From IMG/VR virus record IMGVR_UViG_3300037519_000052, positions 1 through 32,565 of that record: a stretch of DNA of 32,565 bases. The stretch is one strand, 5' to 3'. Under the pieces are notes generated by a model. That model saw nothing but the letters and a program-made list of their open reading frames with translations. It made no database searches and had not been told where the DNA came from. The position numbers and the translations under genes are program-made. Positions within the stretch are counted from its first letter, which is position 1. Each line of letters opens with the position of its first letter. This document shows, piece after piece, positions 17,669 through 27,848 of this stretch. This DNA comes from a virus. Lineage: Duplodnaviria > Caudoviricetes.

Positions 17669-18096
17669 AATTCTAATATTAAATTCTCGTTTGGTAATGG
17701 AGCGACTACGTTAAACCACTCTTTTAAAAATTCTCTAATTTGTAAATGATATTCTTCTTGCTGCGTTGTTGTATTTTCAGTTGTGGATTTTGGTAGTTTA
17801 ATTACTTGCCCCGTTTCCTCGTTTACTTTTTCAATTACGTTAAATTGTATTTTATAAAAATCATGTACTTTCTCGATATTCCAAACCTCGCCCCATTCAT
17901 TTTTAATAGCATTTTGTGTAATTGGATAAAGTACACTCCAAAGATAACTATTTTGTGGGTTGCTCCTTTTCTTCTTTGGTTTATCAAAAGTAATTATAAT
18001 ATCCTTACCCTCAAAACTTTCTATTGCATTTTTTATTAAAGTTCGGTTTTGATTTAGATTTCCATTCTGAACAAATGATTTAATTTGTATTTTCAT
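17665..18096 (-). CDS. NinB/Orf-like recombination protein
   Basis: KRSNPQNSYLW, VH..YK, KST motifs; adjacent to ninG. Confidence 0.65.
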   Translation of the reverse strand: MKIQIKSFVQNGNLNQNRTLIKNAIESFEGKDIIITFDKPKKKRSNPQNSYLWSVLYPITQNAIKNEWGEVWNIEKVHDFYKIQFNVIEKVNEETGQVIKLPKSTTENTTTQQEEYHLQIREFLKEWFNVVAPLPNENLILEL

Positions 18097-18659
18097 TATA
18101 ATAATAATTTAAAAATATTTTTATTTAAATCTATTTTCCAAAGATTAATATCAGCACTTGCTTTAAAACCAACATGATTTATTTTTCCTTTTTCCCAAGT
18201 ACCATAATTTTCAAACCCTAAATTTTTCCAAAACATATTACTATCTAAATCAGTTCTGCATCTTAATGTAAATCCAACCCTAGCAAATGTTTCGCAAAAA
18301 TCTCTACAAACCTCTATAAGTGCTTTTCCATAATATAATCTTCTTGCATCATTTCTAACGGCTATTTGTTGAATTTTAGCATATTTATAACTCCCTCTTG
18401 CTGGAGTTATTAAAACATATCCTACTGCTTCATTATTAGCTTCACAAATTAAAACTATAAAATTTCTTTTACCTCCCCATACATAATCCTCCCAAATAGT
18501 TTTTTGAATAAAACCAACTGCATAAGAATTTTCCTTTTGCAATTTATCTACTAATAACATATCTTTTATTGTTGAAGTTCTAACAGATATATTTGCTAAA
18601 TTATCATTATAAAGAATATTTATTAAACCTGTGCTACAATCAAATTTTCCTAATTTCAT
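18096..18659 (-). CDS. GNAT-family acetyltransferase
   Basis: Motif A IQQIAVRNDARRLYYGKALI; motif B LRCRTDLDSNMFWKNLGF. Confidence 0.85.
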   Translation of the reverse strand: MKLGKFDCSTGLINILYNDNLANISVRTSTIKDMLLVDKLQKENSYAVGFIQKTIWEDYVWGGKRNFIVLICEANNEAVGYVLITPARGSYKYAKIQQIAVRNDARRLYYGKALIEVCRDFCETFARVGFTLRCRTDLDSNMFWKNLGFENYGTWEKGKINHVGFKASADINLWKIDLNKNIFKLLL

Positions 18660-21112: not shown

Positions 21113-21206
21113 TTTTTTAAAAAGTTAATGCCTTACTACAAGCGGTGGACGTCGCAAGTAATAAGGCATTTATAATATTTTTTTAGTAGCGTCCACTCTA
21201 CAGATG
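21113..21206 (-). ncRNA. Structured 5' leader with kissing loops, copy A (before initiator gene)
   Basis: P1 GTAG-[AGTGGACG]-CTAC; P2 AATGCCTTATTAC..GCG-[ACGTCCAC]-CGC..GTAGTAAGGCATT; loops pair GTGGACG/CGTCCAC. Confidence 0.75.
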
Positions 21207-21236
21207 CAAATATAATACTTTTTATTTAATATCAAA
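21207..21236 (-). promoter_or_regulatory. Bacteroidota primary-sigma promoter
   Basis: TTTG-N18-TATATTTG, directly after a terminator. Confidence 0.75.
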
Positions 21237-23220: not shown

Positions 23221-23325
23221 AATAATTTTTTTTAAAAAATATCCCGACTAAAATCTAGTAGGTCAGTACTAGCATAGTCGGGAATAAATAATGTTTTTTT
23301 AAATACCCTGACCGATATTGTTCTG
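23221..23325 (-). ncRNA. Structured 5' leader with kissing loops, copy B (before recombination operon)
   Basis: P1 AATATC-[GGTCAG]-GGTATT; P2 TCCCGACTA..CTAGTA-[CTGACC]-TACTAG..TAGTCGGGA then TATTTTTT; loops exactly complementary. Confidence 0.78.
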
Positions 23326-23336
23326 CAAATATAATA
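23318..23336 (-). repeat. 19-bp direct repeat containing TATATTTG promoter element (copy 1)
   Basis: Plus strand TTGTTCTGCAAATATAATA, identical to 25622-25640. Confidence 0.85.
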
Positions 23337-23340
23337 AAAA

Positions 23341-24135
23341 TTATATATTTAATCCACACATTTCTAAACAATTTTCACATTTACCTAAAAAGGCTTTTTT
23401 ATTAAATTTGCTTACTAATGCTTTTGTTTTCATAAAAGCCATTTTTTTAACTTTTATAATTTCTTTTACTACAAATTCATTTTTTGAACTTGGTCTAAAT
23501 ACTGTATCAATTATATTTTCATTTTTTAATAATTCATTTTGCATTAAACTCATTTCTAAACCTATTGAATTTTTTATATTAAAATCACAAGTAATAACTC
23601 TTAAAATTGATTTGCAATAAGGTTTTAAACGATTATATTCTTTTAATGAATTATCTATTAACTTTTTATTATCTAAAGCTGAAATAGATGTATTTATACA
23701 AATATTATATTTAGATATTTCTTTTAATTGTAAATCTGTTAAGGTTTTCCAATGTCTTGTTATAATTACAATTTGTTTTTTAGATGAAATATCAAATAAA
23801 GATAATTGACTATTTTCTTTAATTTGTTTTATAATATTTAGTGTATGTTCCCAATTTTCCGAAGGATCTCCAGTACATCCAATTCTTATAAAATCCATAT
23901 CAATTTTCTCAATTTGTTTTACTATTTGTAATCGATGTGCTTCGTTTAAAAAACTTCTTTCAATTGACTTACTAAAATCTATTCCATAACGTTTAGCGGT
24001 TTTTAAAGAATAACAATCATTATAACACCCTTTAGGGTTTTCTAATAATCCACTTTCACAACCTTTAATAGTATCTAAATCCCAAATACCCCTACCATTT
24101 TTAGATAGGGATATTATTTTTTTATAGGTTTTCAT
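23341..24135 (-). CDS. Radical-SAM-like Fe-S protein (SplB-like), non-canonical Cys spacing
   Basis: C26-x10-C37-x3-C41-Y, RIGCTGDP, IITR, NTSISALD, C-terminal CxxCxxxC; internal QLSLF. Confidence 0.65.
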   Translation of the reverse strand: MKTYKKIISLSKNGRGIWDLDTIKGCESGLLENPKGCYNDCYSLKTAKRYGIDFSKSIERSFLNEAHRLQIVKQIEKIDMDFIRIGCTGDPSENWEHTLNIIKQIKENSQLSLFDISSKKQIVIITRHWKTLTDLQLKEISKYNICINTSISALDNKKLIDNSLKEYNRLKPYCKSILRVITCDFNIKNSIGLEMSLMQNELLKNENIIDTVFRPSSKNEFVVKEIIKVKKMAFMKTKALVSKFNKKAFLGKCENCLEMCGLNI

Positions 24136-25526
24136 TATAAACGCCCTATATTTGGATAAAGATCTTTTATTTTTGATGTATCACCTTTATAAAAAACATA
24201 AATACGTTGTTCACATTTTGGATATTTACGAGAGTTTAATGTTTTTTTAGCTGTTGCACGTCTTGTAAATTCACTTTCTAAATAAATAATTTTATTATAA
24301 ACATGTAATCCTTGTTCTTTAAAAAACAATTCATGTTCTGCATCAGAACAATAATAACCGCCATCTTTATTTCTACTGTCTCCAGTCATTACAACAAAAA
24401 AAGTATTATCATTCATTACTGAAATAGCATTTTTGTAACCCTCAAAAAGCATGTCTCTAAATTGCTCATAAGTAGATAATGAATTTAGTTCACCTTCAGG
24501 ACTTTTACCATCATAATCTAAATAAGTTTCTACTTTATAATAAGGTGGACATGAAAAAATTAAATCATAATTTTGTTTAGGCACAAATTTTGAAGTATCA
24601 GATTTTAACCATTTTACATTAACAAAGTCTTGACAAAGTGCATTATTAGCATCACATTGATTTTGTCTAATTTCACTTGAAAGGTATTCAAAATTACAAC
24701 CCCCAGCAACAAAACCCATTTGAACACCACCGCCAAAAGGATTATAAATTCTACACCCATTTGTAGGCATAAACATTCTAGCTATAATTTCACAAGCAGT
24801 AGGATCAAGAACCGATGCGTTTCCGTTTAAATCTTTTGTTTTATCTGTTATAATTTCACCATCTACTACAGTTTGTTTAGATAAAACAACATTTGACATT
24901 CCAGCCTTACCTTGCCAACAACCTTCACGACTTGCGAATTTAGGATTAGGTATATTATATTTTAAACCAGCTTCCTCTAATTGAGCATTCCAAGCTCTTT
25001 TAACTTTTAACCATTCACCAGAAGTAGAGTTCCATAAATTAGTCATTGCCATATGGCATAATCTTTTAACTCTTACTTGTTCTTCTTTTCCATAATAAAT
25101 ATAAGTAAAATCATTTTTAGCTAAATTAATTTTAAACCCTAAGGCTAAAAATACTTTTGGATTTTCTAATTTATGTTTATTAGAAACTGTCATAACCATA
25201 TGATAATCATTTATATTTTGATCAATAATTTTTTGCACCATCATAGAATAAATTTCTTTATCCTCTTTCCCGGGATACATAGCTGATTGAAGTAAACAAA
25301 ATTCTTTTACGTTATGATTTACTTCATATGTAAAAAATCCACTAAACTCATCATTAATTTTTAAAATTATAGCTGAATGTTTTTGCATGTTTGCTCTTGC
25401 AGCACGATAAGCAATTTTATCAATTAATGCTAATTCTGCTACTTTTGTTTCATAACCTGATCCGATAACGCTATCCACTTGGATAAGTTCAATTTTTTCT
25501 TCAAATAAACTTTGTTGTTTTTTCAT
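24135..25526 (-). CDS. DNA amino-methyltransferase with N-terminal GNAT-like domain
   Basis: Motif I YNPFGGG, EIRQNQ, motif IV DLIFSCPPYY; N-terminal ~150 aa with GNAT-like pattern (FSGFFTY, LLQSAM, FLALGF); starts MKKQQSLF. Confidence 0.8.
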   Translation of the reverse strand: MKKQQSLFEEKIELIQVDSVIGSGYETKVAELALIDKIAYRAARANMQKHSAIILKINDEFSGFFTYEVNHNVKEFCLLQSAMYPGKEDKEIYSMMVQKIIDQNINDYHMVMTVSNKHKLENPKVFLALGFKINLAKNDFTYIYYGKEEQVRVKRLCHMAMTNLWNSTSGEWLKVKRAWNAQLEEAGLKYNIPNPKFASREGCWQGKAGMSNVVLSKQTVVDGEIITDKTKDLNGNASVLDPTACEIIARMFMPTNGCRIYNPFGGGVQMGFVAGGCNFEYLSSEIRQNQCDANNALCQDFVNVKWLKSDTSKFVPKQNYDLIFSCPPYYKVETYLDYDGKSPEGELNSLSTYEQFRDMLFEGYKNAISVMNDNTFFVVMTGDSRNKDGGYYCSDAEHELFFKEQGLHVYNKIIYLESEFTRRATAKKTLNSRKYPKCEQRIYVFYKGDTSKIKDLYPNIGRL

Positions 25527-25629
25527 AATATTTTTTTAAATAAATACCCGAACTAAAAGAGGTAAGGCACTCTTAAAATTCGGGATTTGTTTTTTTTCGT
25601 TCGACCGCCTTACTTGTCGTTTTGTTCTG
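25527..25629 (-). ncRNA. Structured 5' leader with kissing loops, copy C (before methyltransferase)
   Basis: P1 CGAC-[AAGTAAGGCG]-GTCG; P2 CCCGAAT..AAGAG-[TGCCTTAC]-CTCTT..GTTCGGG; loops pair GTAAGGC/GCCTTAC. Confidence 0.75.
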
Positions 25630-25640
25630 CAAATATAATA
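25622..25640 (-). repeat. 19-bp direct repeat containing TATATTTG promoter element (copy 2)
   Basis: Identical to 23318-23336; its core TGCAAATATAATA also occurs at 21205. Confidence 0.85.
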
Positions 25641-27169: not shown

Positions 27170-27351
27170 AATTGTACTTCTATTTGGTTAATTTTATCTT
27201 GTTCTAAAAGCGATATTAATCGGTTATCGCTTCGCTTTTTAATTTCAATTTGATTGAAGGCTTCCATCATTTGTTCGTTGTTTGAAATGTCACCGCCTAA
27301 ATTAGAAAACCATGTTTGGAAACGCGCGCACTCATTTATCCACTCTTCCAT
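27166..27351 (-). CDS. Hypothetical protein
   Basis: 61 aa ORF, coupled. Confidence 0.55.
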   Translation of the reverse strand: MEEWINECARFQTWFSNLGGDISNNEQMMEAFNQIEIKKRSDNRLISLLEQDKINQIEVQL

Positions 27352-27848
27352 TATTCTTGATTTAAAGTTAATAAATATGCTTTACAAGCGTTAAAAACTG
27401 CTTGAATTTGCTTAAATTCTTCCGTACCTCTTTCGGTAGTTAATTTTTCATCACTTGCAAAAAATAAATCCCAATTTTCAATAGTTCTTTTTTCACATCC
27501 TATTTTAATTTGATTTCCAATAACTGAAAAATTCCATTTACAAAATAAAGGTAAATATGCAGTTTCTTTGTTTTTAGCCGAACGCAAATCAGCCGAACTC
27601 AAATTAGCCGAATACAAATTAGCCGAACTCAAATTAGCCGAACGTAAATCAGCCGAACTCAAATTAGCCGAATACAAATTAGCCGAACGCAAATCAGCCG
27701 AATACAAATTAGCCGAACGCAAATCAGCCGAACGTAAAGAAACTTTTCCTTGAACTGCTTTTTCAACTGCATCTTTTATAGTTGCGTTTTCCGATTCGTA
27801 AGTAAATAGCAAATCGCCATAAATACTTTTAATTTCTATTTTAGTCAT
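27351..27848 (-). CDS. Pentapeptide repeat protein
   Basis: Ten SA[D/N]L[R/Y/S] repeats; C-terminal IKIGCE..TIENW. Confidence 0.92.
   Translation of the reverse strand: MTKIEIKSIYGDLLFTYESENATIKDAVEKAVQGKVSLRSADLRSANLYSADLRSANLYSANLSSADLRSANLSSANLYSANLSSADLRSAKNKETAYLPLFCKWNFSVIGNQIKIGCEKRTIENWDLFFASDEKLTTERGTEEFKQIQAVFNACKAYLLTLNQE
27576..27738 (-). repeat. 15-bp tandem repeat (about 10.5 units) encoding the pentapeptide repeats
   Basis: Units TCGGCTGATTTRCGT, TCGGCTAATTTGTAT, TCGGCTAATTTGAGT. Confidence 0.95.

Follow-up and report, generated by a model that had tools for sequence, protein, structure and literature searches.

What can a phage make with a GNAT-fold domain, an amino-methyltransferase-like domain and a radical S-adenosylmethionine (SAM) enzyme encoded side by side? 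This question is raised by the IMG/VR record IMGVR_UViG_3300037519_000052, a tailed-phage contig of 32,565 nt with a GC content of about 30%, the whole of which is called the window below. A preliminary description, made from its letters, had proposed that two coupled genes of this contig form a DNA hypermodification cassette, gene 1 encoding a GNAT-methyltransferase fusion and gene 2 a radical-SAM-like enzyme, both acting in one pathway. We found this cassette to be real, conserved and apparently unstudied, its probable kind being phage DNA hypermodification. It is probable that the gene pair makes, by one route or another, a DNA base beyond simple methylation. More precisely, we propose, with a probability of about 45%, that the cassette docks on the host replication clamp and hypermodifies new phage DNA by moving the amino-acid arm of SAM onto a base, radical reworking coming after.

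Two Genes That Travel Together

Both open reading frames (ORFs) were found as described, on the minus strand, the stop codon of gene 1 and the start codon of gene 2 sharing base 24135. Their families are large (1,333 and 2,350 matches at 90% clustering), and the co-occurrence across phages that had been suggested as a check was borne out. Indeed, gene 1 lies directly upstream in 67/68 loci found with gene 2, and the remaining locus starts inside gene 2. Starting from the 128 distinct transferase proteins of the collected loci (66 clusters at 90% identity, 19 at 80%), the radical-SAM gene is directly downstream in 96, fused in 18, upstream in 2 and nearby in 4; 2 others end at a contig edge and 6 are without radical-SAM match. 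The 18 fused cases, as well as P0273, are three-domain proteins in which a radical-SAM, a GNAT and a methyltransferase domain follow one another. Among the six without match (L numbers designate loci), L112 carries a canonical enzyme discussed below, L166 an 88-aa remnant of such an enzyme, and L180 and L203 start at a contig edge; the last two are weighed with the model. We also sampled IMG/VR in a less query-biased way, by the pattern YNPFGGGVQ (119 matches, ~240 estimated). Eighty of these came with flanks, 2 already in the collection were left out, and among the 78 analysed the radical-SAM partner is adjacent or fused in 73, the other 5 being cut by contig ends. The pairing of the two genes is near-obligate and, because they are also joined in three-domain fusions and have the folds described below, the proposal of a single pathway for both enzymes is supported.

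We found no third gene conserved along with the pair; its most frequent neighbours differ among loci and resemble replication or recombination genes, the top three neighbour clusters having been rejected as opposite-strand shadows. DpdA, from the 7-deazaguanine system, is encoded directly downstream of one cassette transferase (L203:865-1686; PF23859 E 1e-43), and a DpdA link was not retained, this being the only such locus. In L181, the N-domain of the transferase relative is FemAB/DUF2156-like by eye, its identity not being confirmed (L181:5326-6100), and the N-terminus of the upstream 889-aa ORF (L181:1124-3793) is, by eye, what we take to be Cas9-like.

Gene 1, a GNAT Fold Joined to a CPPY Transferase

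The model of gene 1, built with 35 sequences (predicted local distance difference test (pLDDT) 79.5, predicted template modelling score (pTM) 0.82), contains a GNAT fold. In VIA, this domain matches NatC (7l1k; Z 16.1, root-mean-square deviation (rmsd) 2.2, 130 residues aligned), and residues 11-147 also match RimI and Ard1 (Z 15.4 for each). The acetyl-CoA loop of GNAT acetyltransferases has the motif R/QxxGxG/A. The GNAT-like domain had been described as lacking a clear motif of this kind, and the homologues agree: the glycine-rich loop occurs in 0/123 of them and is degenerate throughout this clade. The domain is conserved nearly as well as the remainder of gene 1 (mean column identity 0.74 vs 0.81, 122 sequences), and a relative without radical-SAM partner, L179, keeps the canonical GNAT loop (Pfam Acetyltransf_1, E 2.4e-7). 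Because the domain is conserved without its CoA loop and Mom, the GNAT fold by which phage Mu modifies DNA without acetyl-CoA, acylates from an aminoacyl-tRNA (Gly-tRNA, PMC13219725), a non-CoA donor or a binding role is plausible.

The GNAT fold also opens an Elp3-like route, in which the transferase would make an ordinary N-methyl base or finish a product. The GNAT domain would handle an acetate or acyl unit, gene 2 would join this unit by radical chemistry, and the outcome would be a carboxymethyl-type base. A radical-SAM and a GNAT domain in one chain is the arrangement of Elp3 (bioRxiv 10.1101/2025.05.07.652618), the canonical loop does exist in L179, and the transferase fold is nearest to true N-methyltransferases. 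However, this loop is missing from the whole radical-SAM-partnered clade, whereas a relative lacking the partner has it, and gene 2 is nearest to spore photoproduct lyase (SPL), so that we regard this route as unlikely.

The second domain has a class I SAM fold, nearest to aTrm11 (Z 16.7, rmsd 2.6, 180 aligned), then to Trm14 and TrmN, with motif I before motif IV. Both amino-methyltransferase motifs claimed for gene 1 are present, YNPFGGG at residues 261-267 and FSCPPYY at 324-330. Motif IV of N6-adenine and N4-cytosine DNA methyltransferases is (D/N/S)PP(Y/F/W). Gene 1 departs from it by its CPPY, in a class I SAM fold with motif I present; CPPY is found in 123/128 distinct cassette proteins, the pattern finding none in the other 5. 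Gene 1 matches phrog_498 (E 9.6e-38) and, weakly, PF01555 (E 3.4e-4, 21.1 bits vs a cut-off of 26.7). A gene 1 homologue without ~32 internal residues (L009/L102) and a fused gene in several pieces (L184:5149-7404) reflect assembly error or decay.

Gene 2 and the Radical-SAM Fold

The motifs reported for gene 2 are all there (C26-x10-C37-x3-C41, GDP at 89-91 and C253-x2-C256-x3-C260). The first one is not the radical-SAM motif CX3CX2C. Neither gene 2 nor 40 close homologues match Pfam Radical_SAM above cut-off, and a distant homologue (P0368) stays below it (E 0.0029). Pfam, NCBIfam, PHROGs and PDB sequence searches gave no family name for gene 2, the PDB sequence search with its profile gave no match, and rows for EIF3I and pyruvate kinase were discarded as chance. 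The structural model (76 sequences, pLDDT 95.2) is a partial TIM-barrel of the radical-SAM type; the two folds expected, GNAT in gene 1 and radical-SAM in gene 2, were both recovered. SPL (4fhc) ranks first in VIA (Z 11.9, rmsd 3.9, 222 aligned), ranks 1-39 are radical-SAM enzymes, judged by title or name, and the ESM Atlas neighbours are GP88, Radical_SAM and DUF5131 clusters at 0.92-0.94. The six cysteines are invariant in 41 close homologues; in the 76-sequence alignment, with identities as low as 21%, C26, C37 and C41 never vary and C253, C256 and C260 are conserved to at least 90%. Gene 2 is predicted from its model to be an SPL-like radical-SAM enzyme. It has no matching cultured phage in the INPHARED set, and therefore no virion DNA data can be borrowed. 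In one protein (P0354, 701 aa), a gene 2-like domain is fused to an ATP-dependent DNA ligase domain.

In three loci (L112, L135 and L172), the slot of gene 2 is occupied by a CX3CX2C Radical_SAM protein (Pfam E 1.2e-6 to 2.6e-11). This canonical partner is homologous to the gene 2 family (hhalign 91.6%, E 8e-7) and also to a radical-SAM gene of phi_M6 annotated 'DNA repair photolyase' (92.2%, E 6e-7). From its position after the pyridoxal phosphate (PLP) gene, we take the latter for gp53, an enzyme whose substrate is a DNA-attached amino acid (PMC8989533). SPL and gp53 are the only radical-SAM enzymes acting on DNA that this 2021 source names (PMC8989533).

The likeness to SPL can also be read more simply, gene 2 being a co-travelling SPL-type enzyme for repair or adduct removal next to a plain N6-methyladenine (m6A) or N4-methylcytosine (m4C) methylase equipped with a clamp tether and a GNAT-fold reader. 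The best fold match of gene 2 is a repair enzyme, the PF01555 match, below cut-off as it is, points to ordinary methylases, and 55/80 CPPY loci of the sample presented below are without detected tailoring partners. However, gene 2 is not found away from gene 1 (67/68), is fused to it in 18/128 and, in some loci, has another SPL-type enzyme in its slot; because a general repair gene would not need such linkage, fusion and in-place replacement, this simpler reading is weakened and appears decidedly unlikely.

The CPPY Family and Its Partners

The cassette members form their own clade (support 1.0) within a wider CPPY family. A homologous transferase domain with CPPY is common to the ParB-fused phage methylases (phrog_498) of Listeria B054 (gp77), Croceibacter P2559S (gp66), ZRG1, Vincenzo (gp1) and Pam4 (Pam4_70); methylases at ParB-terminase loci are mentioned in PMC4738411. 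Distant homologues in cultured phages have CPPY, or SPPY in one case. In 12 cultured-phage loci, the next gene encodes an S-adenosylmethionine (AdoMet) decarboxylase in 2 (ZRG1, P2559S) and a PLP enzyme in 2 (Mae-JY30, Vincenzo), a PLP domain is inside the same gene in 2 (Pam4, R6L), and 6 have no such partner by annotation (B054, HCTV-2, phiCTP1, phiFL3A, G and Funu2). The Mae-JY30 partner (L138:4828-5538, XAI96327.1) is annotated 'DNA modification methylase', yet matches PALP (E 4.6e-12), and in two loci the transferase domain is interrupted by an entire PLP enzyme (L140:3012-5501, which is Pam4_70, and L219:3138-5375).

We then compared IMG/VR loci drawn by DNA pattern, 120 CPPY matches (~2,800 estimated) and 120 DPPY controls, the analysis covering 80 and 79 of them with flanks. 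All 80 CPPY ORFs match the gene 1 domain profile, with the signature F[ST]CPPY-x3-E-x-Y. The direct neighbours of both sets were submitted to the same Pfam search (E <= 1e-4); 130 CPPY neighbours were found and 3 left out, two of them being already identified radical-SAM partners. A tailoring enzyme is encoded by 14/127 CPPY neighbours vs 0/122 for DPPY methylases (Fisher 8.6e-5). These 14 are 4 AdoMet decarboxylases, 6 PLP enzymes (three of the six rows falling below Pfam's own cut-off), 3 Asp/Asn beta-hydroxylases and 1 GNAT; 3 SAM synthetases occur among the 122 control neighbours. A count with local hidden Markov models (25/80 vs 0/79) was set aside as biased, because the seeds came from the CPPY set, and the Pfam count was used instead. 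One PLP partner matches the phi_M6 PLP gene beside the radical-SAM gene (E 7e-5), the product of which decarboxylates an amino acid attached to DNA (PMC8989533). Because a methyl group offers nothing to decarboxylate, to hydroxylate in this way or to acylate, these partners would suit a transferred arm rather than a methyl. Further CPPY partners are Asp/Asn beta-hydroxylases, adjacent or fused (L248, L256, L267, L283), a sulfotransferase (L286) and ORFs in which an FSGGKD motif was noted by eye as PP-loop-like (L227, L237).

Motif I varies along with the partner. It reads DPFAGGxVRG, with the Arg kept, in 13/13 members linked to a PLP enzyme or hydroxylase, and the same three key residues are found in 49/53 partnerless members. 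In 10/10 decarboxylase-linked members it is DxFAGDxxFG, with an Asp gained and the Arg lost, and in 126/128 members of the cassette clade NPFGGGVQ[MFL]G, with Asp changed to Asn and the Arg lost. We infer that the varying residues contact the SAM amine and carboxyl.

The invariant cysteine of the active-site motif invites yet another reading, a relay split between the two proteins along the mechanism of RlmN and Cfr: Cys326 of CPPY would be S-methylated and gene 2 would make the methylene radical, leading to C-methylation of the base. RlmN does appear among weak Foldseek rows (E 0.05). CPPY, however, occurs across the family mostly without a radical-SAM partner (4/80 have one), and such a relay seems very improbable.

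A Probable Tether to the Replication Clamp

Both cassette proteins carry a pentapeptide close to the beta-clamp consensus QL(S/D)LF (PMC9690074). A QxxLF-type motif occurs in 93/103 gene 1 homologues, nearly always N-terminal (shuffled mean 15, max 24). For gene 2, the naive QxxLF count (98/103) was discarded, Q199-x-x-L-F being part of a structural helix. When only loop and tail are considered, 44 of 101 homologues have a QLxLF-type motif in the inserted loop and 28 have it in the C-tail; 29 have it at neither site and 0 at both (shuffled mean 2.9). The QLSLF of gene 2 itself sits in the least confident segment of the model. To shift in this way between exposed sites is the behaviour of a short binding motif, and both proteins likely bind the host beta clamp. 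Because of these clamp-like motifs and of the ParB-fused relatives, DNA is the likely target. The gene immediately upstream of one cassette encodes a phage DNA polymerase III beta clamp (L222:1336-2418), and in phiCTP1 a beta clamp gene comes two genes after the CPPY family member.

Alternatively, the unit would act on RNA or protein (Trm11 and Elp3, for instance, act on tRNA) or would drain or alter host SAM. The top transferase folds, aTrm11, Trm14 and TrmN, are those of tRNA N2-methylguanosine (m2G) methyltransferases (Z 14.7-16.7). Against such targets stand the clamp-like motifs on both proteins and a family often ParB-fused and beside terminase genes; moreover, no THUMP-type tRNA domain is seen in the gene 1 model ranges. 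We judge this alternative quite improbable.

A Model of the Cassette and Its Weak Points

The model of clamp docking and arm transfer can be told in four steps. Both proteins, to judge from their motifs, would attach to the beta clamp and so have newly replicated DNA as their substrate. The CPPY domain would then alkylate an exocyclic base amine with the SAM amino-acid arm (3-amino-3-carboxypropyl (ACP) or a derivative) instead of a methyl, as the partner genes across the family suggest; the so-called methylase domain may not transfer methyl at all. By analogy to SPL and M6 gp53, gene 2 would abstract a hydrogen from the attached arm and then rearrange, cleave or decarboxylate it. In the weakest step, the GNAT domain would cap or hold the amine with a donor that is not acetyl-CoA, unless it has become a binding module. 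The purpose of the whole is likely protection from restriction.

Several points weigh against this model. The closest solved folds of the gene 1 transferase are tRNA m2G methyltransferases, and the transfer chemistry of the CPPY enzymes is predicted only, by reasoning from relatives. The 55/80 CPPY loci with no detected tailoring partner within 1.5 kb fit plain methylation too. The DPPY control is a methylase family other than CPPY, and the partner classes follow clades on the tree (1 change for GNAT, 2 for AdoMet decarboxylase), so that they amount to about three independent classes and the support is smaller than the P value suggests. The cassette clade itself is without decarboxylase partners and its motif I is unlike those of both other classes; the ACP reading is consequently carried over from relatives. 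Moreover, phage AdoMet decarboxylase homologues can decarboxylate ornithine or arginine instead (PMC10407285). Regarding gene 2, Foldseek gave no match at E <= 0.001 in PDB and BFVD, and no direct alignment with the M6 enzyme was obtained (0.2%); its link to gp53 is therefore transitive. With the acetyl-CoA loop in 0/123, the GNAT step is without identified donor. Finally, L179 and L181 have a transferase and an upstream SNF2 gene with no radical-SAM gene.

A broader statement, which we put forward tentatively and at short of even odds, is that the CPPY 'methylases' (~2,800 IMG/VR stretches) are aminocarboxypropyl or aminopropyl transferases acting on DNA in a wybutosine-like way. In this view, this clade (~240 stretches) would add a GNAT fold that has given up acetyl-CoA and a radical-SAM enzyme that rides the clamp and has a new cluster motif, and would make an undescribed base immediately behind the replication fork. 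If so, a common phage family annotated 'DNA methylase' would install SAM-derived amino-acid side chains on DNA, the cassette being its radical-SAM branch. This would mean a new DNA base, one of the few radical-SAM enzymes acting on DNA and a case of DNA modification coupled to the host clamp. In the mostly open literature, we found no description of the cassette, of the CPPY enzyme or of aminocarboxypropylated phage DNA; ParB-methylase neighbourhoods of this sort may be listed in Iyer et al. 2013 (NAR) or in the supplement to that paper.

Layout of the Locus and Host

The contig also carries portal, terminase, Erf, NinB and NinG genes, the cassette being located among small genes, upstream of the recombination genes (Table 1).

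Table 1. Coordinates of the cassette features in the window.
Feature	Position	Strand	Remarks
Gene 1	24135..25526	-	463 aa; clamp-like motif, GNAT-fold domain and CPPY-family amino-methyltransferase-fold domain
QQSLF (residues 4-8)	25503..25517	-	gene 1; beta-clamp-binding-like pentapeptide
GNAT-fold domain (residues 9-149)	25080..25502	-	gene 1; without acetyl-CoA pyrophosphate loop
SAM-binding motif I YNPFGGGVQMG (261-271)	24714..24746	-	gene 1; remodelled compared with DPFAGGSVRG of most family members
Motif IV CPPY (326-329)	24540..24551	-	gene 1; family hallmark
Gene 2	23341..24135	-	264 aa; SPL-like radical-SAM-fold protein
C26-x10-C37-x3-C41	24013..24060	-	gene 2; predicted [4Fe-4S] ligands; the region lines up with CX3CX2C of the canonical partner that replaces gene 2 (L135)
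QLSLF (110-114)	23794..23808	-	gene 2; exact beta-clamp consensus in an inserted low-confidence loop
C-terminal CxxCxxxC	23356..23379	-	gene 2; predicted second metal or cluster site
15-nt direct repeat, copy 1	25624..25638	-	upstream of gene 1; contains TAnnTTTG
15-nt direct repeat, copy 2	23320..23334	-	just past the gene 2 stop

The 15-nt repeat that brackets the cassette has 2 exact copies in the window vs 0.04 expected. It contains TAnnTTTG, which we take to be the Bacteroidota promoter -7 element; both copies may be promoters, and the gene pair would then form its own transcription unit. The generic pattern TAnnTTTGCA is not enriched in the window (5 vs 5.2 expected) and is modestly enriched upstream of gene 1 homologues (15/99 vs 36/584 coding windows). 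A third intergenic copy of the promoter-like core, TATATTTGCA, lies at 21205-21214 (minus strand). From the low GC and this element, we infer a Bacteroidota host. Sequence words of the cassette were found in four other studies, one freshwater, one industrial waste and two lake water (fraction 0.22-0.45); none of the datasets listed was RNA.

A second, canonical GNAT gene lies at 18096-18659 on the minus strand (Pfam Acetyltransf_1, E 1.7e-8) and has no homologue among the cassette loci. On the same strand, 27351-27848 encodes a 165-aa protein with pentapeptide-like repeats (ADLRS/ANLYS), and a similar protein is encoded just upstream of the cassette in L166.

Comparison with Known Systems

The GNAT domain recalls Mom, a GNAT fold in a phage enzyme that modifies DNA without acetyl-CoA. 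Mom, however, is a single enzyme, whereas the cassette GNAT shares its chain with a SAM-dependent domain and has a radical-SAM protein as partner. Members of the Mom family have an HTH-like insertion and the catalytic residues R111/S124 (PMC13219725); general family-library searches of the cassette proteins gave no match to the Mom family, no alignment to Mom having been made. Elp3 joins radical-SAM and GNAT domains to modify a nucleobase, as the cassette probably does (bioRxiv 10.1101/2025.05.07.652618). Elp3 uses acetyl-CoA and tRNA, whereas in the cassette the CoA loop is lost, a transferase is attached and the clamp-like motifs point to DNA; the single chain of the Elp3 type exists here only in the fused relatives, the CoA loop being absent. 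Compared with the ParB-fused CPPY family, the cassette has GNAT in place of ParB, a remodelled motif I and, as partner, a radical-SAM protein instead of a decarboxylase.

The fold of SPL (4fhc) matches best, covering almost all of gene 2. The two share 14% identity, and gene 2 differs from SPL by non-canonical cysteine spacing, an additional C-terminal CxxCxxxC and an obligate link to a transferase. The thymidine hypermodification system of M6 (gp51-gp54), in which gp53 is an SPL-like radical-SAM isomerase and gp52 a PLP decarboxylase, resembles the cassette in coupling an SPL-like radical-SAM enzyme to a group transferase on phage DNA (PMC8989533). The PLP partners of the CPPY family, which match the PLP gene adjoining the phi_M6 radical-SAM gene, provide a further link. 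On the other hand, the hydroxymethyldeoxyuridine (hmdU) kinase and the aGPT transferase of M6 are not in the cassette, where the transferase is a SAM-binding CPPY domain, and gene 2 has the spacing C-x10-C-x3-C.

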